Below, one piece after another: positions 709 through 27,936 of a DNA stretch of 32,000 nt. Below the pieces are notes generated by a model. The model did no database searches. It saw only the letters and a program-made list of their open reading frames with translations, and was not told the origin of the DNA. Source of the stretch: Planctomycetales bacterium (GTDB lineage: Bacteria > 4484-113 > JAFGCY01); NCBI GenBank assembly GCA_022646745.1, contig CP060262.1, positions 150,001 to 182,000 on the forward strand. The letters run 5' to 3'. The stretch's first letter is position 1. Every line of letters begins with the position of its first letter. A program made the position numbers and the translations under genes.

Positions 709-714
709 GGGGAG

Positions 715-953
715 TGGAAGAAGTCTGAATAGTTTGGATAGTGGAAGAAGTGGAAGAAGTAAGTCGGAGCTAGACAGGGAAGAGTCTGTCCCGTTTGGCA
801 ATACTACCGGTGCTACCTGCCTACTGACTTCTACCTACTGACTTCTACCTACTGACCACTGGCCACAGCCAACTGACCACTGACCACTGACTACTGACCA
901 CTGACAACTCAACTACTTACACTATTCAGGACTATTCCCACTATCCCCACTAT
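715..953. repeat. Low-complexity intergenic block of short tandem word repeats
   Basis: Contains gtggaagaagt x2-3, ctgacttctacctactg x2, several ctgaccact units and actattcaggact x2. The last has an inverted partner, agtctgaatagt, near 733. Confidence 0.6.
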
Positions 954-1811
954 TCAGGACTTCCCTCCAACCTCCGCACTCCTCACTCCAACCTTCTTCT
1001 TGAGTACCACCAGCGCAATCCCGCCGAGGATCACCACGCTGCAGATTGCCAGCCTCGGCGTAAGCACCTCGCCCAGCAGCAGCACCCCACCCAGCGCGGC
1101 GATCGGCGGCACGCTGAGCTGCACCGTGGCCGCCGTGACCGAGGCCAGCGAGCGTAGTGCGGCATACCACAGCACGTAGCCGATACCGGATGCCAGTGCG
1201 CCGGAGAGCACCGCCCAGCCCCAGCCATCCAGCTTCTGCTGGGTGAACTGCGCCAGCGCCAGCCACAGCAGGATGGCCGGCAGGGCAGCGCGGATGAAGT
1301 TGCCGGCGGTGGCGGCGGCCGGGTTGGCAATACCCTTGCCGCGCAGGGAATAGATCCCCCAGGCGACGCCGGCGGCCAGCATGAACAGTGAGCTCACAAG
1401 CGGCGGCTGGCTGAGGCCCGGCAGCAGCAGGTAGAGCACGCCGGCGGCCGCCAGCAGGAAACCGGCGAGGCGCAGGCCGGACAGCCGCTCGCCGCGGGAC
1501 AGGCCGTAGCCGATCATCGTCACCTGCACGGCACCGAACAGCAACAGCGCGCCGGTGGCGGCACTCAGCTGCATGTAGGCCGCGGAGAAGAAGCCGGCGT
1601 AGGCCAAAAGCGCCAGGGCGGAGGGCCAGTTGCCCTGCACACGCTGGCGGTGGACCAGCATCATCAGCCACAGCATCGCCGCGCCGGACAGCACACGCAG
1701 CATGGTGAAGGACGCCGGGTCGATGCTGCCTGAGGCCAGCGCCAGGCGGCAGATGATCGAATTGCCGGCGAAGGCCAGCATCGCCAGCGCGGTGAGGATG
1801 AGGGTGGTCAT
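954..1811 (-). CDS. EamA/DMT-superfamily permease (10-TM drug/metabolite transporter family)
   Basis: 285-aa ORF with an ATG at 1809-1811. It is hydrophobic throughout, with two-halves EamA-like organisation (N-terminus MTTLILTALAMLAFAGNSIICRLAL). The overlapping ORFs at 922..1671 and 1031..1330 are Arg/Pro/Ala-rich alternative-frame artefacts. Confidence 0.8.
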   Translation of the reverse strand: MTTLILTALAMLAFAGNSIICRLALASGSIDPASFTMLRVLSGAAMLWLMMLVHRQRVQGNWPSALALLAYAGFFSAAYMQLSAATGALLLFGAVQVTMIGYGLSRGERLSGLRLAGFLLAAAGVLYLLLPGLSQPPLVSSLFMLAAGVAWGIYSLRGKGIANPAAATAGNFIRAALPAILLWLALAQFTQQKLDGWGWAVLSGALASGIGYVLWYAALRSLASVTAATVQLSVPPIAALGGVLLLGEVLTPRLAICSVVILGGIALVVLKKKVGVRSAEVGGKS

Positions 1812-1865
1812 TGCTGCGTGATGAGTGTACTACTGAGTGGAGCTGCGACTTCAGTCGCTGGAAAG

Positions 1866-1992
1866 ACCCATGACTACAGACTCCAGAAGTCAGACTCCAG
1901 ACTACAGTCTACAGATCTCAAGCCGTAGCCCTCTGCGTCAATGTACCGAATTGCCAATCTGAAGTCTGGGGTCTAGGGTCTGAGATCTGATT
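1866..1992. repeat. Imperfect long palindrome / low-complexity element
   Basis: cagatctca (about 1909) pairs with tgagatctg (about 1980). gactccagactacagtctacag is opposed by gaagtctggggtctagggtctg. There is also a small hairpin, gcgacttcagtcgc, at about 1845. Confidence 0.45.
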
Positions 1993-1993
1993 T

Positions 1994-2140
1994 TCGCCTC
2001 GCATACGCTCGGGTGGCACCGGGGTCAGCGAAGTGGTTTTCTAAACGCGGAGTCGCGGAGACGCTGAGGAAAACGGACGTGCGAAACTGGTTTGCGCACA
2101 ATGGATCGCAATGAATGTACTCGATCTGGCAATGCCGCAA
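1994..2140. repeat. Third copy of the ~150-bp intergenic repeat family also present at 6191-6337 and 6347-6500
   Basis: Shared blocks: tcgc(a)tacgctcggg; gtggttttctaaacgcggag versus atggttttctttaacgcgaag; ctcgatctggcaatgc versus ctcgatctggcccatgc. Confidence 0.5.
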
Positions 2141-2261
2141 TCCTCCCCGTGCCCTCACCACTCTGCTACCCCCAACAACCTGGCTCCTACGTCCTCACCC
2201 GCCGCCGGCCGGATTGCCATCCCCACCCTGGGCGATCAAGCCTGCGGCCTGACTAATCTGC

Positions 2262-2322
2262 CGTCTCACGCAAGCGCTCGACGGTCTGGCGCTGCGGCTG
2301 CGCATTCGCGCATCCGGGTCTC
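2262..2322. repeat. Dispersed copy of the repeat family found at 20901-21291
   Basis: tctcacgcaagcgctcgacggtctg matches cctcacgcaagcgctcggcggtctg at 20911 and 20988. The following gcgctgcggctgcgcattcgcgcatccgggtc is the reverse complement of gacccggatgcgcgaatgcgcagccgcag at about 21107. Confidence 0.6.
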
Positions 2323-2572
2323 GCTGAACTCACTACACCCGGGATGTCCGGCGGCTGATGGGATGAGCGGCGCAAATCGGTTACTTTGTTTGGGTTATAT
2401 CAATTGGCAACAACAGGACACCCTGCACGATGTTCACACAAGGATTGCCAAAGGAGATGAAAAAGGGGGTAACAAAAAAGCCGAAATCAGCCTAGACTGA
2501 GTAACCCGCCGGAGGGGCAACTGTCAGGTGATTACCGTCACTGTACACATAGGCACTCAAACAGTACATCAA

Positions 2573-2788
2573 TTAATCTTCTCTTTTCTCAAAGATCAAT
2601 TCCCATTCATATACTGCATCATTATCACCATCATGCTCAATGAAACCGATTAGATCTTCAAACGCATGGATTTCTCCTTGGTTAACAATTCGATCAACGC
2701 AACGATAACCTCGGCGATCACCTTCCTCTATGTACGTGCCGGCTTCCTGGACAGTTCCAGTAAACTCATACTTAAACTTAGTTGGCAT
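2573..2788 (-). CDS. Small acidic hypothetical protein (71 aa), third gene of the low-GC islet
   Basis: ATG preceded by AAGGAG (minus strand gttcAAGGAGtaggttATG). D/E-rich. Separated from the upstream gene by a 240-bp AT-rich spacer. Confidence 0.6.
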   Translation of the reverse strand: MPTKFKYEFTGTVQEAGTYIEEGDRRGYRCVDRIVNQGEIHAFEDLIGFIEHDGDNDAVYEWELIFEKRED

Positions 2789-3028
2789 AACCTACTCCTT
2801 GAACTAGTATAGACATTCAGAAATCACTATAACACATTTATTGTCCTACTACTTATTCTGATTCTCGAATCAACAGTTTACAACATTCACCGCAAGATTG
2901 TGAGATTCAGTGTGCTATCAATAAGAAATTAAGAAGATAATGGTCAATGCAACTAACCATGATTGACAACGCTGCCGTACAATTAGATTAATGATCTGAG
3001 CTTAATTGCTACAGAAAGTTCTGCAAGA

Positions 3029-4051
3029 TTACGCAAATAAGTCCATCTGCTTATTTTGTTCTTGATTGCTAACAACCTGCCTGGAAAATTTTCTCGCAAC
3101 AGATTTCTTACTTAGAATATCCGCAGCAAATTTTCCTATGTTCTTTCTATTCTCATAGACAGGTCTGTAATTCCATTTAACATTCGAAGCTGAAACTGAT
3201 ATGAAGTCATTATCAGCTGCGAATTTTATTGACTTCCTTAACTGTCGCTGCTCTTCTTCGATTGAACTCATTAACTCAATACAACTCAACAATTTATCCT
3301 GTTGAATTTCCGAGTTTTCTTGCACTTCTCCGTTGCTTGTTTGCGCATAGACAATTTTATACATCTCGTAAACATATTCAATTCGATGTACAGGACTAAG
3401 CCCATCATTCGTTGTTAGGTAATCAATGCCATAATGTTCAATATCATCTATTTTTATCTTCACATCATCATCAAAAACAGCCCCAAGTAGTTTAGATCCT
3501 GATTTTATTCCGTATAGGTCTATATGGTTTGTATCCTCTCGCCTTAACCTAAGACCAACACCACTCGTATTCATTGATTTTGATACTGCAGACCAAACAC
3601 CACAATCACTTATTGAAGTGTAATTAGAAGTTTCATTTCTTAATCTTGTAATATCATCATCTTCTATAATCAGCAACTTGTGATAGTTTGGGTTTCTAAC
3701 ATGAAGCTTCTTCCCCTCTATTATTATCTCGTTGACTTGACCCATCCTATTAATTTGCTCATGAAGTTCTTTGCTTTGTTTATCTGGCATGTATCCTGCC
3801 TTATACTCGCAAATCACCAGATCTTTATCTCGTTGCAACAACAAGTCTGGTCTGTATGTCCTTCCATCTATACAGCGAATCATTGGCCAACGATAAACTT
3901 TACCCTGAACAAATCTTTGCCACCAAAACGATAATCCGTCTATTACGGATTTTGTCTTATTGCAGATATCATACTTAGCTTGATAATCATTAAACTTATA
4001 GTAATAGTGGTCTTTCTTTTCCTGCTTAACTGGGAGTGGCGGTTTTCTCAT
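3029..4051 (-). CDS. Hypothetical protein with an N-terminal PD-(D/E)xK (restriction-endonuclease-like) nuclease motif
   Basis: 340-aa ORF with an ATG at 4049-4051 preceded by GGAGAGG. Motif TYRPD(69)LLLQRDKDLVIC-E(82)YK(84), encoded at about 3800-3850, has the form PD-x12-ExK. I recognise nothing in the C-terminal ~230 aa. Confidence 0.7.
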   Translation of the reverse strand: MRKPPLPVKQEKKDHYYYKFNDYQAKYDICNKTKSVIDGLSFWWQRFVQGKVYRWPMIRCIDGRTYRPDLLLQRDKDLVICEYKAGYMPDKQSKELHEQINRMGQVNEIIIEGKKLHVRNPNYHKLLIIEDDDITRLRNETSNYTSISDCGVWSAVSKSMNTSGVGLRLRREDTNHIDLYGIKSGSKLLGAVFDDDVKIKIDDIEHYGIDYLTTNDGLSPVHRIEYVYEMYKIVYAQTSNGEVQENSEIQQDKLLSCIELMSSIEEEQRQLRKSIKFAADNDFISVSASNVKWNYRPVYENRKNIGKFAADILSKKSVARKFSRQVVSNQEQNKQMDLFA

Positions 4052-5039
4052 TGTGCCTCTCCAAGTTGAAATTCACATCAATTGTATCTAGTATATCCAA
4101 CATAAAGGTTCTATCTGCAGACTTGGAAGCACTGAGGTAGATGTTTAACTTGTATCCACCATCGACTTCCATTCTGTAAAATTTAAGTGAGACTACACCA
4201 CCAGACCACTTGCTAAATATTTTCAAGGATACTCTTTCTTCTTCGGTACCCCAAGATACACTGTGTCCATGTTGATACAATTCACTATTTAGTGCAGAGA
4301 ATAGATGCTCCTCCTCCTTAATCGAACGTAAAACAAAGCTATAAAATCCGGTAACACGATTATTGGTATAACTTTCTAATCTATCCTCTATTAACTCTAT
4401 TCTCTCTAGCATGGAAGGAATAAGTAATTCCCATGAATATGGGTCAATTCCATTCTTGTTATATATTTGAAAGTATCTATCAAGTGAAAACAGTGGTTTT
4501 TTTATCTGTACTCTGTCCAAGTATTCATTTCCTATTTCAAGAGTAGCGCGAAGCTGATCTAAATACCTTTCATTAACATATTTCTGTTTTTTCCCTGTTC
4601 TGGCATAAGAATTACTTGACGCCAAGAACAGCAAGTCCTGCCCCGTTACTTTATTAAATTGCTCAAGTAGGCTTAGGAATTCATCGTTTGACATTATGAT
4701 TGGCTCAATTCCAATACTAGGGTTGAACAACAAGTAATTCCGTAGGAATAGTCGAATCTTATACTCATTGGAGTTGATTATCAGAAAGCGGAAATCACTA
4801 GTATTTGTCAGTACAACTGGATATTCAGTTATCTGAATCTCATTTGGCTCCCCACCCCAATAAAATGTAGCACGGATATTACTTGTACCAACTCTGACTA
4901 GCTCAACAGTTCCAATTGTGTTTTCCTGCCATGTTCCAATATTATGATCCAATTCTTCCCAGCAGTTGTTGAACACTCTAACAGGAATTGCCAAGTGTTC
5001 TCTCCAATCAAGTTGCTGGAATAGTTTTATATCTATCAT
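4026..5039 (-). CDS. Hypothetical protein (337 aa), first gene of the low-GC islet; no recognisable motif
   Basis: ATG at 5037-5039, only 2 nt after the moxR TAG. A GGAG lies 5 nt upstream, within the moxR 3' end. Its 3' end overlaps the next gene by 26 nt. No Walker A or other signature was seen. Confidence 0.65.
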   Translation of the reverse strand: MIDIKLFQQLDWREHLAIPVRVFNNCWEELDHNIGTWQENTIGTVELVRVGTSNIRATFYWGGEPNEIQITEYPVVLTNTSDFRFLIINSNEYKIRLFLRNYLLFNPSIGIEPIIMSNDEFLSLLEQFNKVTGQDLLFLASSNSYARTGKKQKYVNERYLDQLRATLEIGNEYLDRVQIKKPLFSLDRYFQIYNKNGIDPYSWELLIPSMLERIELIEDRLESYTNNRVTGFYSFVLRSIKEEEHLFSALNSELYQHGHSVSWGTEEERVSLKIFSKWSGGVVSLKFYRMEVDGGYKLNIYLSASKSADRTFMLDILDTIDVNFNLERHNEKTATPS

Positions 5040-5041
5040 AC

Positions 5042-6079
5042 CTACTCCGCGGTCGTCTGAACACTCGCGATGATGTCCTTCACCACCTTGTCGCTCGACA
5101 CGCCCTCGGCCTCGGCCTCGAAGTTGAGGATCGTGCGGTGCCTAAGCACCGGCAATGCCACGCGGCGGATGTCGTCGTAGCTGAGGTTGAAGCGGTTGTC
5201 GAGCAGGGCGAGCACCTTGCCGCAGAGGATCAGGGCCTGCACGGCGCGCGGGCTGGCGCCGTAGCGCACGTAGCGGCGCACGCTCTCCGGCGCGCGCACG
5301 TTGTCAACATGCGTGGCCATCGCCAGGCGCACCGCATAGCGCACCACATGCTCGGCCGCCGGCACCTGGCGCACGATCTTCTTCATCTCGATGATGCGCG
5401 CGCCCTTCACCGCCGGCTGCACGGTGGCGAACTTCGCCGTGGTGGTGCGGTCGATCACCTCCATCAGCTCGTCCTCGCTCGGGTAGTCCACGTTGATCTT
5501 CAGCATGAAGCGGTCGAGCTGCGCCTCCGGCAGGGGGTAGGTGCCCTCCTGCTCCAGCGGGTTCTGCGTTGCCAGCACCAAAAACGGCGGCGGCAGCTCG
5601 CGGCGCTCGCCGTAGACCGTCACGCTGCGCTCCTGCATGCTTTCGAGCATGGCGGACTGCGTCTTCGGCGTGGCACGGTTGATCTCGTCGGCGAGGATGA
5701 TGTTGGCGAAGATCGGGCCGGGGATGAACTTGTAGGCCTTGTGGCCGTGCTCATCCTCCTCGATGATGTTCGTACCGGTGATGTCCGCGGGCATCAGGTC
5801 CGGCGTGAACTGGATGCGGTTGAAGTCGAGGTCGATCGCGTCAGCCAGCGTGCGGATCAAGAGTGTCTTGGCCAGGCCGGGGACACCCTCGAGCAGGGCG
5901 TGGCCATCGGCGAACAGGGTGACCAGCACTTCCTCGATCACGGCCTTCTGGCCGACGATCACCTTGCCGACTTCTGACTCAATGGCCCGGTAGTCCGTCT
6001 GGAACTCCTGGCAGATGCGCTGTACATCAGCGGGGGAAATATTGCTCAGATCCATGTCCTCTCCACTAGTTCGATCCAT
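5042..6079 (-). CDS. moxR: MoxR-family AAA+ ATPase
   Basis: Walker A LLEGVPGLAKT, Walker B ILADEINRA, sensor region LATQNPLEQEGTYPLPEAQLDRF. The start is probably ATG 6079 (MDRTSGED) or ATG 6055 (MDLSN, preceded by GGAGAGG). The ORF-track start at 6199 lies in repeat DNA. The antisense ORF 4988..5977 is rejected. Confidence 0.88.
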   Translation of the reverse strand: MDRTSGEDMDLSNISPADVQRICQEFQTDYRAIESEVGKVIVGQKAVIEEVLVTLFADGHALLEGVPGLAKTLLIRTLADAIDLDFNRIQFTPDLMPADITGTNIIEEDEHGHKAYKFIPGPIFANIILADEINRATPKTQSAMLESMQERSVTVYGERRELPPPFLVLATQNPLEQEGTYPLPEAQLDRFMLKINVDYPSEDELMEVIDRTTTAKFATVQPAVKGARIIEMKKIVRQVPAAEHVVRYAVRLAMATHVDNVRAPESVRRYVRYGASPRAVQALILCGKVLALLDNRFNLSYDDIRRVALPVLRHRTILNFEAEAEGVSSDKVVKDIIASVQTTAE

Positions 6080-6190
6080 TATAGACGGCAGAGCCGGGAG
6101 GCAGAAGGCAAAAGGCAGAAGGCCGGCCGCTGGCGCCAGTGATCTGACGCCGGATGCGGCGCTTGGGTTTTCAGGGGAATGCCGCAAGGC

Positions 6191-6337
6191 TCGCTGCACT
6201 CGGGCTGCGTTGAGCAGGGGTGGGATAGATTTATCTAACGCGAAGACGCGAAGGAAGATGAGCGGGAGATACCTTAGCGCCTCAGCGTCTTAGCGTTAAA
6301 AGAAGCAGAGATGCGATCTCGAACTGGCCCGTGCGGA
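6191..6337. repeat. ~150-bp intergenic repeat, tandem copy 1
   Basis: Aligns block by block with 6347-6500: tcgctgcactcggg, taacgcgaagacgcgaaggaagatgag, ttagcgcctcagcgtcttagcgttaaa, atgcgatctcgaactggccc. It contains an internal imperfect inverted repeat, taacgcgaagacgc / gcgtcttagcgtta. Confidence 0.75.
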
Positions 6338-6346
6338 TGCACGACT

Positions 6347-6500
6347 CGCTACGCTCGGGATTCGTTTAGCAAAGGGGGGATGGTTTTCTTTAACGCGAAG
6401 GCGCGAAGACACGAAGGAAGATGAGAAAGAGATAACTTAGCGCCTTAGCGTCTTAGCGTTAAATGAAGCCGACATGCGATCTCGATCTGGCCCATGCGAG
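6347..6500. repeat. ~150-bp intergenic repeat, tandem copy 2
   Basis: Same blocks as copy 1, with an extra gcgcgaagaca sub-repeat. It ends 10 nt from the stop of the membrane-protein gene. Confidence 0.75.
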
Positions 6501-6510
6501 GCTCACTAGT

Positions 6511-7617
6511 TCATTGCGCGCTGTCGCTGCTGCTGTCCGCTGCCGGGGCCGGTGGAGCCTCCGCAGCAGCGGATCCAGCTTCCTGTGCCGGCAGTTCCTC
6601 CAGGCCGGGCAGTTCCTCGAGCCTGATGTTACCACCGCTGAGCTGTCCGACCTCCAGCTCGTGCCAGTTGTCGCTTTCGTCGAAGCTGCGCACCCGCACA
6701 ACGGCTGAGCCATGGCGAATGGCGAGCGGGGTCTGCACCACCAGCGGCCGGCCGCCGCCGGCGTACTCGAGGAAGATGGTCAGGCCACTGAGGCTGAAGC
6801 GCAGGCCCGGCAGGCTGGCATCGCCGAGCCTGAACTGGGCCGCCGGGTAGTTGCCGGCCTCAACCGGACGGGGGCCGAGGCGCAGCTGCTGTAGGCGCCC
6901 GCCGTTTTCCAGCTCCAGCCAGAAGGCGCGGTCGCGCCTGAGCAGCCAGGGCAGGAAGCCGCCGATGAACATCCCGGCGATGAAGCCCGCCAGCAGCATG
7001 CAGATCGAAAGCTGGAACATACTGCCGGACTCTACCGCCAAGCGGCTGAATGGTGCGAGCAGCAGCATGCCGAGCATCCCGCCGATGCTGCCGATCAGCA
7101 GGCCCCACTCACCGGGCAGGTTGTCAACCGCATGCGGCAGCACGACCCAGGCGCCGGCGGCGCAGGTGAAGAACAGCAGCATTTCTACGGGCAGGATCCC
7201 GCTGATGCCGGAGATGCCCTGCACCATGATGTAGAACAGCGCGAACACGCTCAGCAGCAGGCCCGAGATGAGGCTGTGGAGGATCGCCAGCGGCAGCATC
7301 CTGCGCAGTCCGAGGAAGGGGTTGCGGCGGATGCCCAGCAGCGCCTGCCAGACAAGGGACAGAAGCGGCAGCAGAACCAGCATGCCGCCCAGCAGGCCGA
7401 TGATCATGCTGGCGCCGACATAGAGCAGCAGGGTGCCGAACAGGTTGATGAGCTGCATGAGCCCGGGGGTGGCGCTGATGTTGTTGAAAACGGCGGCCAC
7501 ATAGCTGACCCCGTCCTGCAGCAGGCCGGCGGCAGCCACCAGCGGCAGGCTGGCCAGCAGCCAGGCGAGGCCGAAGCCGAGGATGGCACCAAGGCGCGTC
7601 AGGAAACCTTGCGGCAT
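6511..7617 (-). CDS. Polytopic membrane protein with a C-terminal soluble domain of about 110 aa and an acidic/Ala-Pro tail; function unknown
   Basis: The start is taken at ATG 7615-7617 (MPQGFLTRLGAILGFGLAWLL). There are about 6-7 hydrophobic helices, then RRDRAFWLELENGG...VVRVRSFDESDNWHELEV. No clear SD was seen. The 501-nt upstream extension of the listed ORF (to 8118) runs antisense into the lipoprotein gene and is rejected. Confidence 0.6.
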   Translation of the reverse strand: MPQGFLTRLGAILGFGLAWLLASLPLVAAAGLLQDGVSYVAAVFNNISATPGLMQLINLFGTLLLYVGASMIIGLLGGMLVLLPLLSLVWQALLGIRRNPFLGLRRMLPLAILHSLISGLLLSVFALFYIMVQGISGISGILPVEMLLFFTCAAGAWVVLPHAVDNLPGEWGLLIGSIGGMLGMLLLAPFSRLAVESGSMFQLSICMLLAGFIAGMFIGGFLPWLLRRDRAFWLELENGGRLQQLRLGPRPVEAGNYPAAQFRLGDASLPGLRFSLSGLTIFLEYAGGGRPLVVQTPLAIRHGSAVVRVRSFDESDNWHELEVGQLSGGNIRLEELPGLEELPAQEAGSAAAEAPPAPAADSSSDSAQ

Positions 7618-7737
7618 GCAACATGATACGCGCAGTGGCGCACGGAAGTGTTCAGTGGAGGCCGGCGCAGGGCTGCATGGAAATGGGGAAACACTGATCA
7701 AATGAATGTACATCCGCCAGGCGGCCCGGTGGGCAGA

Positions 7738-7746
7738 TGTTAAATT
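7738..7746 (+). promoter_or_regulatory. Extended -10-like motif TGTTAAATT upstream of lipoprotein paralog 1
   Basis: TGnTAnnTT lies 28 nt before ATG 7775. The same motif class sits at a similar distance before paralogs 2, 3 and 4. Confidence 0.35.
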
Positions 7747-7774
7747 TGGGATGACCTTCGGCAAGGAGAATTCC

Positions 7775-10378
7775 ATGCACCGTACCCTTACCCTATTGAT
7801 TTTCATTGCACTGCTCGCGGCATCCTGCGGCGGCAGTGCCACTCCCGGAACTGTCCAGCAGGCGGCTGAAAGCCCGCTGACTGGCCAGCTGGCGGACAAC
7901 GGCAGACTGCCGGAGGACGGCCTGCTGCCCTGGGAAAGCCTCAACGAGAACGGTTTCGTGGATCCCGCGACGGCGCGGCGCTCGACGGCAATCAATGAGA
8001 ACAGTGAATTCTGGCGCGGAGTGGATGCCTGGCAGACCGCCGGCAGCACGACGGCCACGGGCCAGGCCCTGCGGCTGGACAGCGGCAGCGCGGGCAGCGG
8101 TGAGCGCAGCAGCGCCACCTACCGCATCCCGTTGGCCGGCGAGAACCCGGCGATCCTGTCCACCGACATCAACCTGCGCAGCCGCGACGACGCCAGCGCC
8201 AGTGATTTCTTCATCAGCATCGCCAACTTCAGCAGCGGACGCTGGGACTGGTTCGGCCCCTTCAGTGACGGCCGCATCCGGCTGCCGCTGGATGAAGCTG
8301 CGACCGGGAACTACATCTCCGGACTGGGCAACGCCTTCGTGAGCGTGGCGGCCTACAACGGCAGCAGCTTTGACATCGTCGGAATCTCGCTCAACCAGTT
8401 CGACCCGGGCGATGCGACGGCACCCCCCGCCCCGAGCGGACTGAGCCTGGCGGCAAGAGTCGGCGCGGTGGAAATGCAGTGGAACGGCGTGATCGCAGCT
8501 GACCTCGCCGGCTATGCGATTTACTACAGTGACAAGACCTTCGTGAATCCGGGCAGTGCCGGGGTGAAGCAGCTCAACTACCTTGAGGGCGGCACGCGCC
8601 ACCTGCTCAGCGGTGTGAGCGGGACGGTATTCGTGGCCGTCAGTGCACTGGACCTCAGCGGCAACGAGAGCGCGATCTCCAGCGTGGAGAGCACCGCCGT
8701 GATCGCCGGTGATGGCCCAGTGCTCGAGCTGCTGGCGGGCAGCACGGAGGGTATCGTCGGCCAGCCGATCTCCCTGACGGCCAGCGGCTCGCCAGCCTTT
8801 GACTGGGACCTCGATGGCGACGGCACCTTTGAGGTGACAGGCGATGTGTCCGGCAGCCAGATTGCCGACACCGGCAAGGCGGGCATCATCCGCCCGGCGG
8901 TGCGCGGCTCCGATGGTTCCACGGCGGTGGCACTCGGCGCGGTCAGCCTCATCGTGGCCAGCGACCTGCCCCCGGTGGCGATCCTGACCGCCAACCGCAC
9001 CAAGGGTGCGATCATCGACGGCGGCACAAGTCCGCTCAACGTGCAGTTTGACGGTGGCAACAGCTATGACGACGGTCCGACACTGGATTACTCCTTCAGC
9101 CCGCTCGGTGATGGCAACTACTCCACTCCCTCATCGAATGCCAACTACAACCAGGGCTACTCCAGCTCCGGGCAGTACACGGCGATGATGCGCATCGAGG
9201 ACAGCGCCGGCCAGCAGGCGCTGGCCCTGCTGCCGATCCGCGTGGAGCAGGTGACGGGATTCAAGAACTACGTCGTCTATCCCGGCTACAACAGCGGCAT
9301 CTACGGCTGCATGGCAGTGGTCGCCGGCCGCCCGGCGGTGCTGTTCCGCAAGTTCGGCCCGACCCCGGACGACGATGGCCTGTTCTACAGCCGTGCAATG
9401 GATGACGGCGGCAGGCTGTGGGGAGAGCCGGTCAAGCTGGCTGACAACAACAACTATGGCGACTACTTCGACCTTGCCGTGATCGCAGGCAACCCGGCGA
9501 TCGCCTGGTACAAGTTCAGCGCGAACAAGGTGTTCTACCGCCGCGCCAGCAGCAGCACCGGCCAGACCCTGTCCGACTGGAACAACCCGGGATTCGAGAT
9601 CTCCGGGGTACTCAGTGTCAGCGACGAGGTCAGGCTGCTGGAGGTTTCCGGCAACCCGGCCGTGATCTGGACCGACGGCTCTGACATCAAGTACGTGCGT
9701 GCGACCGGCGGCTCCGGTACCGGTGACTTCGCCGGGGACTGGACGGACGCGCCCTTCAACATCGTGGCCGCTTCCAACATCGGCCCACGACCGGACTTCG
9801 CCATGATTGCCGGCAACCCGGCGATCGCCTACTGGAACACCGGCACCAATGAGGCCTGCTATGTGAGGGCGACTTCCGCCAGCGGTTCCAGTGCACTGGA
9901 CTGGCCGGCCACTCCCGTGGTTGTGGATGGCAGCGACACCTGTACTGGACGTGTCAACCTGCTGCAGGTGAATGGCGCACCGGCGATCAGCTTCTTTGAC
10001 AGCGCCGACGATTCCGATATCCATTACACCCGTGCCACCACGGCAACCGGCACCGACATGGCAGACTGGCCGGTGGCGGTTTCCGTCAACCACGGGTTCG
10101 GCAGTGGCAATACCTGGCACGACCTGGCGATCATCTCCGGCAGGCCGGCGATCGCCTATGCTGACTACCGTTCCGGAGCAGCGACCTCGTACCGCCGGGC
10201 GAATGATGCCAACGGTTCGTCCTGGGGCGATCCGATGAGGGTCGGATCCAACATCGACTACAACGACTCGATGTACGAGCGGGTCGACCTGGAGGACCTG
10301 AACGGCTTCCCGGTAGTCTATAACCACTACCAGAGCTGGGACCGTGGGGTCGTCAGCGTGCTGGAAAGTGAGTTGTAG
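7775..10378 (+). CDS. Surface lipoprotein paralog 1: N-terminal beta-sandwich-like region, FN3, 2x PKD-like, 7-repeat GNPAIAY propeller
   Basis: ATG 7775 is preceded by AAGGAGAA. Signal peptide and lipobox MHRTLTLLIFIALLAASC. FN3-like APPAPSGLSLAARVGAVEMQWNGVIAADLAGYAIYY. PKD-like FDWDLDGDGTFEV and a second PKD-like segment. Seven ~45-aa repeats (AGRPAVLF, AGNPAIAW, SGNPAVIW, AGNPAIAY, NGAPAISF, SGRPAIAY, NGFPVVY). Confidence 0.85.
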   Translation: MHRTLTLLIFIALLAASCGGSATPGTVQQAAESPLTGQLADNGRLPEDGLLPWESLNENGFVDPATARRSTAINENSEFWRGVDAWQTAGSTTATGQALRLDSGSAGSGERSSATYRIPLAGENPAILSTDINLRSRDDASASDFFISIANFSSGRWDWFGPFSDGRIRLPLDEAATGNYISGLGNAFVSVAAYNGSSFDIVGISLNQFDPGDATAPPAPSGLSLAARVGAVEMQWNGVIAADLAGYAIYYSDKTFVNPGSAGVKQLNYLEGGTRHLLSGVSGTVFVAVSALDLSGNESAISSVESTAVIAGDGPVLELLAGSTEGIVGQPISLTASGSPAFDWDLDGDGTFEVTGDVSGSQIADTGKAGIIRPAVRGSDGSTAVALGAVSLIVASDLPPVAILTANRTKGAIIDGGTSPLNVQFDGGNSYDDGPTLDYSFSPLGDGNYSTPSSNANYNQGYSSSGQYTAMMRIEDSAGQQALALLPIRVEQVTGFKNYVVYPGYNSGIYGCMAVVAGRPAVLFRKFGPTPDDDGLFYSRAMDDGGRLWGEPVKLADNNNYGDYFDLAVIAGNPAIAWYKFSANKVFYRRASSSTGQTLSDWNNPGFEISGVLSVSDEVRLLEVSGNPAVIWTDGSDIKYVRATGGSGTGDFAGDWTDAPFNIVAASNIGPRPDFAMIAGNPAIAYWNTGTNEACYVRATSASGSSALDWPATPVVVDGSDTCTGRVNLLQVNGAPAISFFDSADDSDIHYTRATTATGTDMADWPVAVSVNHGFGSGNTWHDLAIISGRPAIAYADYRSGAATSYRRANDANGSSWGDPMRVGSNIDYNDSMYERVDLEDLNGFPVVYNHYQSWDRGVVSVLESEL

Positions 10379-10402
10379 CGACCGGTCCAGCTGGCAACAA
10401 CA

Positions 10403-10440
10403 GGCCGCTGTGGGAGTTCCCATGGCGGCCTTTTCATTTC
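10403..10440 (+). terminator. Rho-independent terminator after paralog 1
   Basis: Stem ggccgc..tggga / tccca..gcggcc followed by ttttcatttc. Confidence 0.65.
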
Positions 10441-10479
10441 CGGGGAGCTTCCCTCTGGCAGCTTTCCCGAACAGGCGCA

Positions 10480-10488
10480 TGCTACATT
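10480..10488 (+). promoter_or_regulatory. Extended -10-like motif TGCTACATT upstream of paralog 2
   Basis: Lies 29 nt before ATG 10518. It is identical to the 9-mer before paralog 4. Confidence 0.35.
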
Positions 10489-10517
10489 TGTAGCCAGTTA
10501 ATGCAGAGGAGACTCCT

Positions 10518-13109
10518 ATGCACCGCATCCTGATTCCCCTGATGATCATTGCCCTGTTCGCGGTTTCCTGCGGCGGCAATGCCACTCCCGTACCGGTCCA
10601 GCCCGGCCAGGGAGCACTGACCGACATGCCGGCTGACAACGGGGCAATTCCCGAGGACAGCCTGCTGCCCTGGGAAAGCCTCAACGAGAACGGATTCGTG
10701 GATCCCGCGACGGCGCGGCGCTCCACCGCAATCAACGAGAACAGTGAATTCTGGCGTGGCGTGGATGCCTGGCAGGTGGCCGGCAGCACAACAAATGTGG
10801 GCCAAGCGCTGCGGCTGGACAGCGGCAGTGCGGGCAGCGGTGAGCGCAGCAGCGCCACCTACCGCATCCCGCTCACGGGTGAGAACCCGGCGATCCTGTC
10901 TACCGACATCAACCTGCGCAAGCGCGACGACGACAGTGCCAGCGGGTTCTACATCAGCATCGCCAACTTCGAGACGGGCCGCTGGGACTGGTTCGGTCAG
11001 TACAGCGACGGCCGGATCAGGCTGTCGCTGTCCGAGGCTGCGACGGGGAACTACATCTCCGGACTGGGCAACGCCTTCGTCAGCGTAGTGGCCTACAACG
11101 GCAGCAGCTTCGACATCGTCGGCGTCTCACTCAACCAGTTCGACCCGGCTGATGCGACGGCACCGCCTGCCCCGAGCGGACTGAGCCTGGCGGCACGCGT
11201 CGGCGCGGTGGAAATGCAGTGGAACGGCGTGATCGCAGCTGACCTGGCCGGCTACGCGATCTACTACAGTGACAAGACATTCGTCAACCCGGGCAGTGCC
11301 GGTGTGAAGAAGCTGAATTACCTCGAGGGCGGCACGCGCCACCTGCTCAGCGGTGTGAGCGGGACGGTGTTCGTGGCGGTGTCCGCGGTGGACCTCAGCG
11401 GCAACGAGAGCGCGATCTCCAGCGTGGAGAGCACCGCCGTGATCGCCGGTGACGGCCCGGTGCTCGAGCTGCTGGCCGGCAGCACCGAGGGCATCGTCGG
11501 TGAGCCGATCACGCTGACAGCCAGCGGGTCCCCGGCCTTTGACTGGGACCTCGATGGCGACGGCACGTTTGAGGTGACCGGCGACGTGTCCGGCAGCCAG
11601 CTGGCTGACACCGGCAAGGCGGGCATCCTCCGCCCGGCGGTGCGCGGTTCCGACGGCGCTACGGCTGTGGCACTCGGCGCGGTAAGCCTGATCATCGCCC
11701 AGGACCTGCCGCCGGTGGCGGTGCTGACAGCCAACCGCCTGCGCGGCGCGATCATCAACGGCGAGACCAGCCCGCTGAGCGTGAACTTCAGTGCCGGCCA
11801 GAGTTATGACGACGGCCCGACGCTGGACTTCGCCTGGGCACTGACCGGTGATGCCAGCTTCGGCCCGGCCGGACCGGCTGACAGCAACTCCTACCAGTAT
11901 TCCAAGAGCGGCGTGTTCGTGGCGATGATCCGCGCCGAGGACAGCGCGGGCCAGGTGGCCTATGCCCAGCTGCCGATCAGCGTCGAGCAGGTGACGGGCT
12001 TCCGTGCATCCTTCCTGTGTGACAACCCGGCCGGCCTGTTCGGTTCACTGGCAATCGTGGACGGTCATCCAGCGGTGGCCTTCCGCCGCTTCGGCCCCGG
12101 CGCCGCACTGGACGGCCTGTTCTACAACCGTGCACTGGACAGCGAAGGCAAGCTCTGGGGCGAGCCGGTGCCACTCCAGACCCAGCCGAACTGGGGCGAC
12201 TTCGCTTGCCTGGCGGTGATCGCCGGCAACCCGGCGATCGCCTACAACAACGGCAACGTGCCCGGCATCTGCTACATCCGCGCCAGCTCCAGCACTGGCC
12301 AGACCCTGGCGGACTGGAACAATGCGCCTGTCGTGCTGACAACTCCGGCCTTCGCCTCCGAGGAGATCGAGCTCATCGACCTGAATGGCAACCCGGCGGT
12401 GGTCTGGTTCGACAGCGGTGACATCTGGTTCCAGCGTGCCACCTCCGCCGCCGGAACCGGTGACAACGCCGGTGACTGGGGTGACCCGGCCATTGAGATC
12501 TACAATGCCGGCAACGCCGATGTACGGCCGGATTTCAAGATCATTGACGGCAACCCGGCTGTGGCCTTCCGCCAGTCGGCCGCCAACCAGGCGATGTACC
12601 TGCGTGCCACCAGCAGCACCGGCGCCAGCGCGCTGGACTGGCCGGGCGTGCCAGTCGTGGTCAGTGCAGCTCATACCGTCACCGGGCGCGTCAACCTCGA
12701 GTTCGTCAGCGGCGCCCCGGCGGTCTCCTACTACGAAAGCGGCAACAGCCTGCGCTATACGCGGGCCAACACCAGCACCGGCTCAATTGCGGCCGACTGG
12801 CCGCTGTCAACGGTGATTGACGAGGGCTTCGGCCAGGGCACAACCTGGCATGACCTCGCGATGGTCGGCGGGAGGCCGGCGATCGCCTACGAGGACTTCC
12901 AGTCCGGCCAGCACACGAAGTACCGCCGGGCCAACAACTCGACCGGCAGCTCATGGGGTGAGGAATGGCATGTGGCCCCGCAGAATGACTGGCAGGACTC
13001 GGCCTACATGCGCATCGACCTGGAGGACCTGAACGGCTTCCCGGCGATCTACGTGCACCACCAGAACTTCGACCGGCCTTCGTTCTACACCTTCGACACT
13101 GAACTGTAG
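10518..13109 (+). CDS. Surface lipoprotein paralog 2 (same architecture as paralog 1)
   Basis: GAGGAG SD; MHRILIPLMIIALFAVSC lipobox. Nearly identical to paralog 1 at nucleotide level over about the first 1.2 kb. The second PKD-like segment and the propeller are divergent. Confidence 0.85.
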   Translation: MHRILIPLMIIALFAVSCGGNATPVPVQPGQGALTDMPADNGAIPEDSLLPWESLNENGFVDPATARRSTAINENSEFWRGVDAWQVAGSTTNVGQALRLDSGSAGSGERSSATYRIPLTGENPAILSTDINLRKRDDDSASGFYISIANFETGRWDWFGQYSDGRIRLSLSEAATGNYISGLGNAFVSVVAYNGSSFDIVGVSLNQFDPADATAPPAPSGLSLAARVGAVEMQWNGVIAADLAGYAIYYSDKTFVNPGSAGVKKLNYLEGGTRHLLSGVSGTVFVAVSAVDLSGNESAISSVESTAVIAGDGPVLELLAGSTEGIVGEPITLTASGSPAFDWDLDGDGTFEVTGDVSGSQLADTGKAGILRPAVRGSDGATAVALGAVSLIIAQDLPPVAVLTANRLRGAIINGETSPLSVNFSAGQSYDDGPTLDFAWALTGDASFGPAGPADSNSYQYSKSGVFVAMIRAEDSAGQVAYAQLPISVEQVTGFRASFLCDNPAGLFGSLAIVDGHPAVAFRRFGPGAALDGLFYNRALDSEGKLWGEPVPLQTQPNWGDFACLAVIAGNPAIAYNNGNVPGICYIRASSSTGQTLADWNNAPVVLTTPAFASEEIELIDLNGNPAVVWFDSGDIWFQRATSAAGTGDNAGDWGDPAIEIYNAGNADVRPDFKIIDGNPAVAFRQSAANQAMYLRATSSTGASALDWPGVPVVVSAAHTVTGRVNLEFVSGAPAVSYYESGNSLRYTRANTSTGSIAADWPLSTVIDEGFGQGTTWHDLAMVGGRPAIAYEDFQSGQHTKYRRANNSTGSSWGEEWHVAPQNDWQDSAYMRIDLEDLNGFPAIYVHHQNFDRPSFYTFDTEL

Positions 13110-15800: not shown

Positions 15801-16271
15801 TCAGGCGATGGCAACCATCAGGTCGCAGTGCAGCTTGCCGCCCTGCTCATCGAGGAAGCCGGCGGGGTAATGCTCGAGCGCGACCCAATGCGGGTCGTGG
15901 TGCAGGCCGGCATCCAGCAGCCGGCGGCTGAAGATGTCACCCATCGCGCGCGGCAGCCTGTGCGGGTCGTCATGGAAATGCCAGACGGCGTAGCGCTTCG
16001 AGGGGATGGCGATGCTGTCCAGCCCGGCCGGGATTGCGTCACCGGGCATCAGCCGGACCGCCGTCCAGTAGTGGATGCCCTTGCCACCGGGCATCGGGAT
16101 GCTGATCCCGTAACGGTCCCGTGGTGCATCGGTGCGGCCGAGGAATGCGTTGAGGCGCTGCCAGAGCTCGCTGATCCCCTGGCAGTCGTAGTTCGGGCAG
16201 TCCAGCGCCAGCCCGACCGCCGTCCATTCTCCCATTGTCACGATGCGAGGTTTCAGTGCGACTGTGTCCAT
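15801..16271 (-). CDS. GyrI-like / AraC-effector-binding-fold small-molecule-binding protein (paralog 1)
   Basis: 156 aa, ATG preceded by AGGGAG. Length and pattern (WTAVGL...W..L...., YW.AV....G...P.GLD...IP...YAVW.FH) are typical of GyrI-like/Cass2-like domains. It is clearly paralogous to 19124..19597 and convergent to paralog 3, with only a 9-nt gap. Confidence 0.6.
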   Translation of the reverse strand: MDTVALKPRIVTMGEWTAVGLALDCPNYDCQGISELWQRLNAFLGRTDAPRDRYGISIPMPGGKGIHYWTAVRLMPGDAIPAGLDSIAIPSKRYAVWHFHDDPHRLPRAMGDIFSRRLLDAGLHHDPHWVALEHYPAGFLDEQGGKLHCDLMVAIA

Positions 16272-16451: not shown

Positions 16452-19061
16452 ATGAGCAGGATCCTACTTGTTTGTTTCTTACTCTGCGGCCTGGCAGCTT
16501 GCTCCGGCGGTGGCGTGGTACGCAGCGGACCACTGCCCGCTGAGGGCCAGCCGCAGGCTCCAGTCGCAGCCGGAATCGCCGGACAGGCAATCCCGCTTGA
16601 TGTGTTGCAGGCATGGGAACAGCTTGATGAAAACGGATTCATTGAGCCGCAGGATGCACGGCTGTCCTCAGCAATCAATGGTGACAGTGAGTTCTGGCGT
16701 GGTGCTGATGCCTGGCAGACCAGTGGCGACAGCAGCCCGAGTGGACAGGCGATGCACCTTGGCAGCGGGTCAGCAGGCAGTGGGCAGCGCAGCAGTGCTA
16801 CCTACCGCATCCCGCTGGCCGGTGAGAACCCAGCAACACTGTCCACGGATGTCAACCTGCAGCTGAAGGATGACGGCAGCCCGGCTGATTTCCTGCTCGG
16901 AATAGCCAACTATTCGACGGGTCGCTGGGACTGGTTCGGACCATTCACCGACGGAAGGGTCAGGTTGCCCCTGTCGGAAGCGGCCACAGGAGATTACATT
17001 TCACCGCTTGGCAACGCATTTGTGAACATCATGGCCTACAGCGGCAGCAGCCTTGACATCGTCGGTATTGCCCTGAACCAGCTGGACCCGGTGGATACCA
17101 ACGCCCCGCCGAGCCCGACAGGCCTCAGCCTGTCCCCGGTGAATGGTGGGCTGGAACTGCAGTGGAACAGCGTGCTCGCGGGTGACCTCGCAGGCTATCG
17201 CATCTACTGGCGCAATTCCGCTATCAGCAATCTCACTGCGGCCGGTGTGCAGAAGCTCAACTACATCGAAGGGGATACACGGCACGTGCTCACGGGTCTC
17301 AAGAGCCATACCTGGGTGGCTGTGACGGCGGTGGATCTCAACGGCAACGAAAGCGGCTTCGTCCTGCAGGACGCGGTCCCGCTTGCCGGAGCGGCTCCCG
17401 TGCTGAGCGTCAAGCCCGACAGCAGCGCCGGAATCGTCGGCACGCTGATCCTGCTGACGGCGAACGGCGCGGACAGCTATGACTGGGACCTCGACGGCAA
17501 CGGCGTGTACGATGTGACCGGCGACACCTCGGGCTCGCAGATCGCGGACACCGGCAAGGCCGGGATCATCCGTCCGGCGGTGCGCGCATCAAGCGGCGGT
17601 ACGGCGGTGGCGCTCGGTGCCGTCAGCCTGATCGTCTCCCAGGACCTGCCTCCGGTTGCCATCCTGACAGCCAACCGCACCGGCGGGGCAATCATCGACG
17701 GCGAGGTGAATCCGCTGAATGTACAGTTCGACGGTGGCAACAGCTATGACGACGGCCCGACACTGGACTTCTCATTCAGCCCACTGGGCAACGGCAGCTT
17801 CTCCGCACCGAGTTCGAATGCCAACTACAACCAGGGCTATTCCAGCTCCGGCCAGTACACGGCGATGATGCGTGTGGAGGACAGCAGCGGCCAGCAGGCA
17901 TTCGCGCTGCTGCCGATCCGTGTCGAGCAGGTGACCGGCTTCCAGAACTACGTCGTCTGTCCCGGCTTCAACAACGGCATCTATGGCTGCATGGCGGTGG
18001 TGGCCGGCCGGCCGGCGGTGCTGTTTCGCAAGTTCGGTCCAGGCCCGGAAGGCGATGGGCTGTTCTACAGCCGCTCGCTGGATGACGGTGGCAGGCTGTG
18101 GGGCGAGCCGGTCATGCTGGCTGACAATGCCAACTACGGCGACTACTTCGATCTGGCGGTGATCGCGGGCAACCCGGCGATCGCCTGGTACAAGTTCAGT
18201 GAAAACAAGGTCCACTACCGCCGCGCAACGAGCAGCACCGGACAGACCCCGTCAGACTGGAGCAACCCCGGGTTCGCGATTTCCGACGTGCTCAGTGTCA
18301 CTGAAGAGGTCAGGCTGCTTGAGGTATCCGGCAATCCGGCCGTGATGTGGACCGACACCACGAACATCAAATATGTCCGTGCCACGGGCGGCAACGGCAC
18401 CGGCGACTTTGCCGGAGACTGGACGGATGCGCCCTTCAACATTGTTTCCGCCTCCAGTGTCGGAATCCTCCCGGACTTCGCCATGATCGCCGGCAACCCG
18501 GCCATCGCATACAGGAAGTTCGACACCAGTGATGCCGCATACCTGCGTGCCACAACCAGCACAGGCGCCAGCGCGCTGGACTGGCCTGCCACGCCGGTGA
18601 TCGTCAACGGCAGTGACAAATGCAGCGGACGCCTAAACCTGCTGCAGGTGAACGGTGCACCGGCGATCAGCTTCTTTGACAGCTCCGATGACAGTGATAT
18701 CCAGTACACCCGGGCAATCACCTCGACAGGAACTGACATGGCTGACTGGCCAACGGCCGTTTCCCTGAGCCATGGTTTCAACAACGGCTACGACTGGCAT
18801 GACCTGGCAATCATCTCCGGCAGGCCGGCGATCGCCTATTCTGACTACCGCAACAGCAGCGTTGCCACTACATACCGGCGAGCCAATGATGCCAACGGTT
18901 CCTCATGGGGCGATCCGATGCGGGTCGGGTCCAATACGGACATCAATGACAACATGCATGAGCGGATTGACCTGGAAGACCTGAATGGCTTCCCTGTTGT
19001 CTACAACCACAACGCAAGCTGGGACCGCGGGGTTGTCAGCGTACTGGAGACCGAACTGTAG
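16452..19061 (+). CDS. Surface lipoprotein paralog 4 (same architecture; the 3' half is close to paralog 1)
   Basis: GGAGG SD; MSRILLVCFLLCGLAAC lipobox. From about SGSQIADTGKAGIIRPAVR onward it is highly similar to paralog 1, including all seven propeller repeats. Confidence 0.85.
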   Translation: MSRILLVCFLLCGLAACSGGGVVRSGPLPAEGQPQAPVAAGIAGQAIPLDVLQAWEQLDENGFIEPQDARLSSAINGDSEFWRGADAWQTSGDSSPSGQAMHLGSGSAGSGQRSSATYRIPLAGENPATLSTDVNLQLKDDGSPADFLLGIANYSTGRWDWFGPFTDGRVRLPLSEAATGDYISPLGNAFVNIMAYSGSSLDIVGIALNQLDPVDTNAPPSPTGLSLSPVNGGLELQWNSVLAGDLAGYRIYWRNSAISNLTAAGVQKLNYIEGDTRHVLTGLKSHTWVAVTAVDLNGNESGFVLQDAVPLAGAAPVLSVKPDSSAGIVGTLILLTANGADSYDWDLDGNGVYDVTGDTSGSQIADTGKAGIIRPAVRASSGGTAVALGAVSLIVSQDLPPVAILTANRTGGAIIDGEVNPLNVQFDGGNSYDDGPTLDFSFSPLGNGSFSAPSSNANYNQGYSSSGQYTAMMRVEDSSGQQAFALLPIRVEQVTGFQNYVVCPGFNNGIYGCMAVVAGRPAVLFRKFGPGPEGDGLFYSRSLDDGGRLWGEPVMLADNANYGDYFDLAVIAGNPAIAWYKFSENKVHYRRATSSTGQTPSDWSNPGFAISDVLSVTEEVRLLEVSGNPAVMWTDTTNIKYVRATGGNGTGDFAGDWTDAPFNIVSASSVGILPDFAMIAGNPAIAYRKFDTSDAAYLRATTSTGASALDWPATPVIVNGSDKCSGRLNLLQVNGAPAISFFDSSDDSDIQYTRAITSTGTDMADWPTAVSLSHGFNNGYDWHDLAIISGRPAIAYSDYRNSSVATTYRRANDANGSSWGDPMRVGSNTDINDNMHERIDLEDLNGFPVVYNHNASWDRGVVSVLETEL

Positions 19062-23886: not shown

Positions 23887-24078
23887 CTCAACCCTCAAAC
23901 AATCAGATTTGCCCAGAGTCAGGGCAGAAAATCCAACTGCGCGCGAAACGACTATAGCACCGATTTGTCCAGCATGTCAATAATAGGGAAATTCTTTCCC
24001 CATTCCATCAACATACCCTTGCGGCACCTGTTGATAACCCCCCGCCCGCCGTCAAGGCCGGGGGCCGGTTTACAAGGT

Positions 24079-25029: not shown

Positions 25030-25030
25030 G

Positions 25031-25894: not shown

Positions 25895-25897
25895 TTC

Positions 25898-27850: not shown

Positions 27851-27936
27851 TTTGAACCCCGTTTGCGCGCAAAGGACGCGCCCTTTGATCTGTGTGGCAT
27901 CACCGCCACACTCCTCCGCCTCGTTTTCTTATCGAA

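Follow-up and report, generated by a model that had tools for sequence, protein, structure and literature searches.

Does the first gene of a tandem array of putative surface-protein genes join the front of one neighbor to the back of another and, if so, what kind of history produced it? The array lies in 32,000 nucleotides of contig CP060262.1 (positions 150,001 to 182,000; this whole stretch is called the window here) and consists of four paralogs, P1 to P4, that the list of open reading frames (ORFs) places in tandem on the plus strand at 7.7-19.1 kb of the window. P1 (7775-10378; 867 amino acids) lies in an ORF that opens at 7706 and is followed by P2 (10518-13109; 863 amino acids), P3 (13227-15791; 854 amino acids) and P4 (16452-19061; 869 amino acids). 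All four exact proteins have public entries, namely H7A35_00655 to _00665 plus a "fibronectin type III domain-containing protein" of the contig of a metagenome-assembled genome (MAG); P1 is H7A35_00655 and P2 is identical to P0004/H7A35_00660. The closest genomes carry the labels UBP7 HKST-UBA01/03, UBP7 being an uncultured candidate phylum with MAGs known from a saline activated-sludge time series. Each protein can be divided into a head of ~400 residues (signal peptide with a conserved cysteine, beta-sandwich, FN3-like domain and a first PKD domain, PKD1) and a tail of ~470 residues (PKD2 and a seven-bladed beta-propeller). The P1 head module spans 7775-8962 (plus strand; lipoprotein-like signal peptide with Cys18, beta-sandwich N-domain, FN3-like domain, PKD1) and the P1 tail module, of the type called A below, spans 8963-10378 (plus strand). 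Our reading is that the heads have probably been homogenized by recombination or gene conversion between the tandem copies, with the tails kept as old types.

An earlier note on this DNA, made from the letters alone, had held that the 5' half of P1 is nearly identical to P2 and that its 3' half is close to P4 while P2 diverges. P2 proved to be the closest relative of the 5' half, 7900-8950 aligning with 10640-11700 without a gap, but at 89.1% identity (113 mismatches in 1040 nucleotides) and a synonymous divergence (dS) of 0.37, from an event that predates the strain split described below, so that "nearly identical" was too strong. Likewise the switch of the 3' half to P4 was confirmed, but "close" amounts to 81% identity and a dS of 0.75. 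A 33-mer quoted in the note has exactly two copies (7921-7953 and 10661-10693; zero expected by chance) and the longest identical run shared by P1 and P2, 64 nucleotides, lies in the head; between P2 and P4 no identical run reaches 25 nucleotides at any point. In sliding windows over the codon alignment, P1-P2 identity was 0.82-0.93 from P1 position ~7880 to ~8900 and 0.59-0.71 thereafter, and P1-P4 identity was 0.60-0.74 before and 0.70-0.87 after the switch; that is, the closest paralog of P1 changes from P2 to P4 along the gene, as had been claimed. By module, the nucleotide identity of P1 and P2 is 89% in the head and ~63-64% in the tail, and that of P1 and P4 ~67-68% and 81%, respectively. 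Quartet-informative sites were mainly of the 12|34 kind in the 5' half (e.g., 23:2:0 and 21:1:2 per 150 columns) and mainly of the 14|23 kind in the 3' half (e.g., 20:2:0). The maximum chi-square breakpoint of the P1/P2/P4 triplet fell at 8980/8981 (chi2 = 316.8; maximum of 10,000 permutations, 20.7; p < 1e-4) and likelihood change points fell at 8943-9000 (P1-P2) and 8796-8926 (P1-P4), inside or just beside the range of 8860-9060 to which the note had assigned the switch.

The same sequences were recovered from other assemblies. Over 20 kb that include P1-P4, the contig L003 of a second MAG is 99.58% identical to the window, and six further contigs from other samples and assemblers have the P2-P3-P4 arrangement at 99.99-100%. 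A sister strain carries a P1 orthologue, K1, that is 97% identical in amino acid sequence and shows the same mosaic; two assemblies of this strain, L001 and L011, agree at 100%. One short stretch of the P1 tail may be mentioned here. At 10284-10313 a 30-nucleotide run is identical in P1 and P2 within tails that are 63% identical; it lies in the last blade and encodes the motif DLEDLNGFP, which is also conserved in P4. Either a small conserved island or a short tract of conversion could account for it.

The recombination junction of P1 maps to 8920-9000 (plus strand), the codons for ...TAVALGAVSLIVASDLPPVAILTANR, which in the P1 model form the PKD1-PKD2 linker and which lie where the last well-conserved nucleotide island ends on its 3' side: mean pairwise nucleotide identity is 0.76-0.79 from ~8771 to 8960 and falls to 0.45-0.65 farther on. 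Taken over the four genomes compared below, 14 of 20 change points between genes of one genome map to P1-equivalent positions 8921-9000. E3, which switches inside the FN3 region, and R2/R3 use other borders. A tract could start anywhere in the conserved head but would be unable to extend into a tail of another type; since tails of another type offer no identical run of 25 nucleotides or more, tracts would end in the last conserved island. We infer that ordinary homology-dependent recombination is the simplest mechanism for the junction.

We compared four syntenic arrays, those of the window (P1-P4), the sister strain (L001; K1-K3), genome AC1.30 (L002; R1-R5) and a contig from ENA (L010; E1-E4). 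Each is bordered by a divergently transcribed gene for a 368-residue membrane protein and a MoxR gene, and three of them have a GyrI-like gene at the opposite end. Neighbor-joining trees were built on protein distances after the alignment had been cut at the DLPPVA motif into head and tail. Such separate 5' and 3' trees, which the note had proposed as a check, were strongly incongruent. In the head tree P1, P2, K1, K2 and K3 grouped together at 100% bootstrap, the E genes formed a group of their own (100%), and P3 and P4 sat on long separate branches. The tails fell instead into type A (P1, K1, P4, K3, R2 and R3; 100% bootstrap), type B (P2, K2, R1, E1 and E2; 100%), type C (P3 and E3; 79-88%) and type D (R5 and E4; 100%). 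On these groupings P1 is classed as a local "a-type" head with an A-type tail, P2 as an a-type head with a B-type tail (junction codon 11703), P3 as a divergent head with a C-type tail (junction codon 14403) and P4 as a divergent "d" head with an A-type tail. Comparison at the sequence level has shown that the two modules evolved separately, with at least four old tail types (A-D) common to several genomes; the grouping of heads by genome and of tails by type is the pattern that concerted evolution leaves when it acts on a single module.

Divergence values told the same story. Within genomes the heads are 72-90% identical in DNA and the tails of the same genes 45-65% (R1-R5, 78 versus 46%; E1-E4, 81 versus 45%), and the P1 and P2 heads are 89% identical to one another versus 72-74% to R-genome heads. 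Tails of one type show 61-71% DNA identity from genome to genome and a dS of ~0.8, equal to that of between-genome heads. By the Nei-Gojobori method, dS was 0.37 in the head and 0.70 in the tail for P1-P2, 1.10 and 0.75 for P1-P4, and, among heads, 0.26-0.56 within genomes versus 0.80-0.90 between them. This split of dS between head and tail shows history, not constraint, at work. The order of tail types along the arrays (E genes, B, B, C, D; R genes, B, A, A, ?, D; window, A, B, C, A) is partly conserved, which favors vertically inherited tails with homogenized heads.

A second and younger swap was seen on comparing P4 with the sister-strain gene K3. The two differ at 428 of 1158 nucleotides (37%) upstream of the switch and at 14 of 1448 nucleotides downstream of it, where tail and terminator are 99% identical; dS is 1.02 in the head and 0.02 in the tail (Nei-Gojobori), and the change point raises the log-likelihood by 277. 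The breakpoint lies at 17600-17682 (plus strand), equivalent to P1 8920-9002: the head has its final mismatch at 17600, and none follows until 17682. The K3 head is a-type, 85-86% identical to the P1 and P2 heads. Because the flanking orthologues (dS 0.10-0.27; 93-97% identical) are less alike than the K3/P4 tail, the head swap or tail transfer is younger than the strain split. Either P4 or K3 could be the recombinant. Given the incongruent trees, the change of dS at the junction and this second swap in the sister strain, the proposal that array members trade head and propeller modules by recombination or gene conversion stands. Naming P1 as the chimera was too narrow, although its mosaic is real: the window alone cannot show it, and K1 and K3 are alike over their full length (head, 86%; tail, 81%). 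Hence a P2-P4 cross is not required to explain P1.

Exchange seems to have continued on a smaller scale after the strains parted. In the part of the head that encodes the FN3-like domain (8275-8700 of P1, plus strand), sites that match a same-strain paralog rather than the orthologue are clustered in the pairs P1/P2, K1/K2, K1/K3 and K2/K3 (permutation p = 2e-4 to 3e-3), as expected of short conversion tracts; K1, for example, matches K3 at 8497-8521. In every comparison it was the head that held the best-scoring cluster; the tails yielded none. The heads of P3 and P4 do not add a further exchange. The N-terminal half of P4 had been said to group with P3, but the two heads are 66% identical, no closer than either is to other heads, and the pairing is not independent evidence because an unrooted quartet yields P3 plus P4 automatically from P1 plus P2. 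With outgroups the P3-P4 head grouping reached 74% bootstrap on long branches, and the head states shared by P3 and P4 were scored as ancestral (28), shared-derived (17) and mixed or ambiguous (44). A P3-P4 affinity as the sign of a second exchange was therefore rejected, the states being mostly shared ancestral ones.

The UBP7 genomes hold several more tandem arrays of the wider family. A second array, in L016 (AC1.30; 410-12742) and L020 (HKST-UBA03; 580-12727), has four genes of the head-plus-propeller family. Up to and including the second PKD domain, the positional orthologues A2 and U2 are 81-98% identical in amino acid sequence; past it they are 16-46% identical. A4 and U4 switch earlier. 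Judged by these alignments, module exchange at domain borders is a habit of the family. In L016, A3 and A4 have an identical signal-peptide region, and some L016/L020 tails are PQQ-like propellers.

From these data we propose that homologous recombination between tandem copies, mainly in the form of nonreciprocal gene conversion, would repeatedly overwrite the heads, with an occasional contribution from exchange between co-occurring strains. The P1 tail would be an old duplicate of the P4/K3 tail (dS ~0.75). The P1 head would have been homogenized with that of P2 later (dS ~0.37) and before the two sampled strains split (orthologue dS 0.1-0.27), after which P4 or K3 would have exchanged its whole head at the same junction while short tracts kept moving between heads. 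Simpler and more likely than a cross of P2 with P4 is an old duplication of an A-type gene, then homogenization of the P1, P2 and K3 heads and, recently, the acquisition of a different head by P4.

Several points weigh against homogenization of the heads by conversion. The direction of the events, the donors and recipients, and nonreciprocity itself are not readable from present-day sequences, and the P1 pattern would look the same had unequal crossing-over produced a hybrid gene. The P3 and P4 heads are 66-69% identical to every other head and so escaped homogenization, and the R-genome heads grouped at only 66% bootstrap. A source of the P4 head was sought in vain: a search of a large database with the head alone, limited by its word filter, gave three distant matches of at most 46% identity, and a scan of Joint Genome Institute (JGI) metagenomes gave nothing above 46%. 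Relative ages are rough, with dS near saturation and codon bias in a 63% GC genome. Finally, we could not derive the four-gene and three-gene arrays from one another in one or two events: in reconstructions that used the flanks, the terminators and both GyrI-like genes, every simple model of deletion, insertion or unequal crossover wrongly lost or wrongly duplicated a GyrI-like gene.

The same pair of trees would also be expected if the heads simply followed organismal history, through independent duplications in each genome, and the tails were the mobile part, imported or exchanged horizontally at the junction. The K3/P4 tail, 99% identical between strains with flanking orthologues at 93-97%, looks like a recent transfer of a tail segment, and positional orthologues of the second array carry unrelated tails. 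However, with a DNA identity of 61-71% and a dS of ~0.8, most same-type tails are as old as the lineages, their order is partly conserved between arrays, and the post-split tracts lie in heads rather than tails. We therefore regard mobile tails as an unlikely explanation of the array as a whole.

Somewhat less likely again is that P1 arose as a hybrid in one reciprocal event. In that scheme a pair of B-type and A-type genes was duplicated and an unequal crossover of the first B with the first A at the junction deleted the intervening DNA; the gene left ahead of P2 joined a P2 head to a P4-type tail, so that P1 would need no gene conversion. The scheme predicts the gene order hybrid, B, A, which is that of K1-K2-K3 in the sister strain, as well as a single sharp junction, and it fits the unusual position of an A-type tail at the front of the array, A-type genes following B-type genes in other genomes. 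It fails to explain the genome-wise clustering of heads in the E and R genomes, the short post-split tracts or the a-type head of K3, and a crossover on a fresh duplication would not predict unequal ages for the P1-P2 heads (dS 0.37) and the P1-P4 tails (dS 0.75). The flanks of P1 (promoter and terminator) have diverged too far to be traced to the region upstream of P2 or downstream of P4.

Unequal selective constraint, with a conserved head, a fast tail and no recombination, has next to no chance of being correct. Heads are indeed more conserved than tails throughout the family, dN/dS is lower in the heads of several pairs, and many pairwise change points share the same domain border. Constraint cannot, however, raise identity across that border, as happens in P1-P4 (0.67 to 0.81) and K3-P4 (0.63 to 0.99), nor switch a tree topology with 100% bootstrap on both sides, nor shift synonymous divergence from 1.0 to 0.02; it was rejected on the trees, the dS values and the K3/P4 profile. 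An assembly artifact joining two paralogs or strains in a repeated region was likewise rejected as extremely improbable, for although the source is a metagenome-assembled genome, tandem paralogs with conserved islands are typical misjoin sites and samples of the same study contain two strain variants of the array, neither half of P1 copies another assembled gene (head 11% diverged from P2, tail 19% from P4), full-length P1 was assembled again in L003, the 97% orthologue with the same mosaic was obtained in L001 and independently in L011, and the P2-P3-P4 part was reproduced in the six further contigs.

The array might be an evolved "plug-and-socket" diversification locus in which the linker island is kept as a recombination socket, a suggestion that we consider improbable. 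If it were true, a uniform stalk could be quickly re-paired with different propellers, both within the array and between co-existing strains, which would alter binding (of prey, phage, polymers or partners), perhaps together with the adjoining pair of MoxR and membrane protein. That would amount to population-level, domain-resolved receptor shuffling in an uncultured phylum and not to a passive by-product of tandem homology. The three-gene and four-gene haplotypes occur in samples of one wastewater-plant metagenome study, and public time series could follow both.

The AlphaFold2 (AF2) model of P1, built on a 29-sequence alignment, has a mean predicted local distance difference test (pLDDT) score of 84.6, with block means mostly of 84-96 over residues 521-867. 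The secondary structure of the head is all-beta, in separate domains. From the N-terminus the model has a beta-sandwich, an FN3-like domain and two PKD domains, and the propeller closes the chain. Among compact structures, the seven-bladed EPTP domain of LGI1 matches that propeller best (template modeling score 0.66-0.67, normalized to the target), and seven G-x-P-A-[IV] motifs in the sequence agree with the seven blades of the model, which bears out the blade number given in the note. Residues 419-481 of P1 match Pfam PKD_4 (PF18911/PF00801 test) at 29.6 bits versus a cut-off of 27, P3 matches PKD at 25.8 bits (cut-off 23.5), and P2 (16.7) and P4 (22.0) remain below the cut-off; the family profile matches the PKD domains of the ColH collagenase at 2.9e-18. 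The propeller and the N-domain have no match in Pfam, NCBIfam or the PDB sequences, and only the PKD part matches known families by sequence. Read against the lipobox [LVI][ASTVI][GAS]C, P3 (LASC) and P4 (LAAC) are canonical, and P1 (AASC) and P2 (AVSC) lack L, V or I at position -3; Cys18 is nearly invariant, being conserved in at least 90% of 29 family members. P1-P4 are probably surface-exposed lipoproteins. We speculate that the propellers are specialized ligand-binding modules borne by a shared head, a stalk or partner-binding part that has to remain uniform. The array gives evolutionary analysis its first grip on a large lipoprotein family, unannotated and much expanded in UBP7, by separating the module that is probably the common stalk from the module that probably carries specificity.

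Terminator-like hairpins, all on the plus strand, lie after P1 (10402-10431) and P2 (13134-13166), both by hairpin scan and by alignment of downstream regions, and after P4 (19087-19114), by the alignment and partly by the scan. The downstream alignment shows homologous hairpins 3' of P1, P2, P4 and K1-K3, and the P4-type hairpin travels with the A2 tail in K3. P3 has no terminator of its own and converges on a GyrI-like gene, GyrI-a (15801-16271, minus strand), which lies between P3 and P4, is assigned to Pfam GyrI-like/Cass2 through the identical L003 gene and is 95.5% identical to the sister-strain copy, located directly after K3. A second such gene, GyrI-b (19124-19597, minus strand; Pfam GyrI-like/Cass2), forms the conserved right-hand border of the array and is 85% identical to the single GyrI-like gene that closes the array of AC1.30. 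GyrI-a and GyrI-b thus flank P4; they are 57% identical to each other and in the sister strain stand side by side with no propeller gene between them (L001 18153-19198). There the K3 tail and terminator join GyrI-a inside its first 12 nucleotides, at GATGGC (TCAGCTGATGGC).

On the other side of the array, the divergent neighbor of P1 (6511-7617, minus strand) encodes the 368-residue polytopic membrane protein, recognized by hydrophobic segments in the alignment and belonging to no known family. It lies upstream of the syntenic arrays in L001/L011, L002/L013, L010 and L012, has no match in Pfam, NCBIfam or PADLOC, and has a conserved C-terminal soluble part; it is 40-50% identical between genera. 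The MoxR-type AAA+ ATPase gene (5042-6055, minus strand; Pfam AAA_3, 6.5e-63, with a weaker overlapping bpMoxR match, 3.5e-13) is 87-99% identical across the syntenic loci. PADLOC, which covers antiphage defense, gave no match for the array neighbors in the window. Directly after the MoxR gene is a low-GC island (2230-5041; 35-37% GC versus ~63% for the genome) with minus-strand ORFs at 4026-5039 (337 amino acids) and 3029-4051 (340 amino acids), neither of which has a Pfam, PADLOC or NCBIfam match. Elsewhere the same slot holds a gene for a 415-residue protein of unknown kind plus a PLD-like (DrmC-like) gene (sister strain), a SIR2-like gene (L010) or an HD-domain gene plus small ORFs (L002). 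The slot looks like a variable, horizontally filled effector or defense-type slot; no tRNA genes flank the island. Just upstream of it, the intergenic region 1860-1990 has many short direct repeats of the "gactccaga / gactacag / tctacag" kind. Downstream of the array, a minus-strand cluster at 21376-31213 resembles type IV pilus or type II secretion genes (a secretin, three ORFs without family matches, and genes for PilM-like, T2SSF (PilC-like) and T2SSE ATPase proteins); the secretin gene also adjoins the array in the sister strain.

In architecture the P1-P4 proteins resemble surface lipoproteins of Bacteroidota such as BtuG, a B12-binding beta-propeller, and the surface glycan-binding proteins (SGBPs), in which an Ig-like stalk carries a C-terminal binding domain (PMC8941943, PMC7974029); these offer a working analogy for a stalk that bears a variable binding part. 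The likeness (a lipoprotein signal, Ig-like, PKD or FN3 spacers, and a distal propeller or other binding domain) is one of architecture only: no sequence relationship was found, and the present genes have no SusC/D or TonB-dependent transporter neighbors. The MoxR gene brings to mind the MoxR-vWA-beta-propeller ternary conflict systems, in which a MoxR AAA+ protein is paired with a vWA protein and the propeller is fused to vWA (Kaur et al. 2020, PMC7159879). Such a system was rejected because no vWA domain was detected in the propeller proteins or in the 368-residue neighbor, a polytopic membrane protein; the propeller proteins also carry secretion signals.

Among systems that vary surface proteins by recombination, the cassette-based ones (Neisseria pilE/pilS, Borrelia vlsE and Mycoplasma genitalium mgpB/C; PMC2169797) likewise use segmental conversion between repeats to alter part of a surface protein and keep a conserved part. 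They differ in having one expression site with silent truncated donors and a high frequency, whereas here the genes are complete and it is the conserved part that is converted. Cassette-type antigenic variation was therefore rejected for this array: each of its four copies is a complete ORF that has its start codon and encodes a signal peptide, and three carry a terminator-like hairpin of their own. The Treponema tpr chimeras (tprC/D/I and tprG/J) have conserved ends and variable regions, and segment exchange gives hybrids that differ between strains and subspecies; their fold is different, the genes are dispersed and the organism is a pathogen under immune selection. Chimeric adhesin paralogs are also formed by babA/babB/babC of Helicobacter pylori (PMC4552749, PMC5483490). 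As in the present array, full-length surface-protein paralogs recombine to join the 5' part of one to the 3' part of another, and the pairing of paralog and locus depends on the strain. The bab genes, however, encode dispersed outer-membrane beta-barrel adhesins whose exchange is tied to host adaptation and on/off expression, whereas the present genes are in tandem and come from activated sludge.

Concerted evolution by gene conversion is known in bacteria from the tuf genes, among others, and its occurrence in bacterial multigene families has reportedly been reviewed by Santoyo and Romero in 2005. The present array is a mosaic tandem surface-protein family that came about by this familiar evolutionary route, with no new mechanism. 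A close parallel for its heads is provided by Brucella omp2a/omp2b, a bacterial multigene family under concerted evolution by interlocus gene conversion (PMC7050475). Both show paralogs of one genome that, over a segment, resemble each other more than orthologues do; both have sharp tract ends, homogenization that extends to synonymous sites, and copies close together on one replicon. In contrast to such families, homogenization is limited here to the N-domain, FN3 and PKD1 of a five-domain protein, and the other module persists as four old types. In respect of this module-limited concerted evolution, the present family and UBP7 are undescribed. The array is a clean case of domain-resolved partial concerted evolution, in which one module is uniform within a genome and the ligand-facing module is kept as old types, with a boundary exactly at the interdomain linker that has been reused in at least two separate events in the species and in several related genomes.

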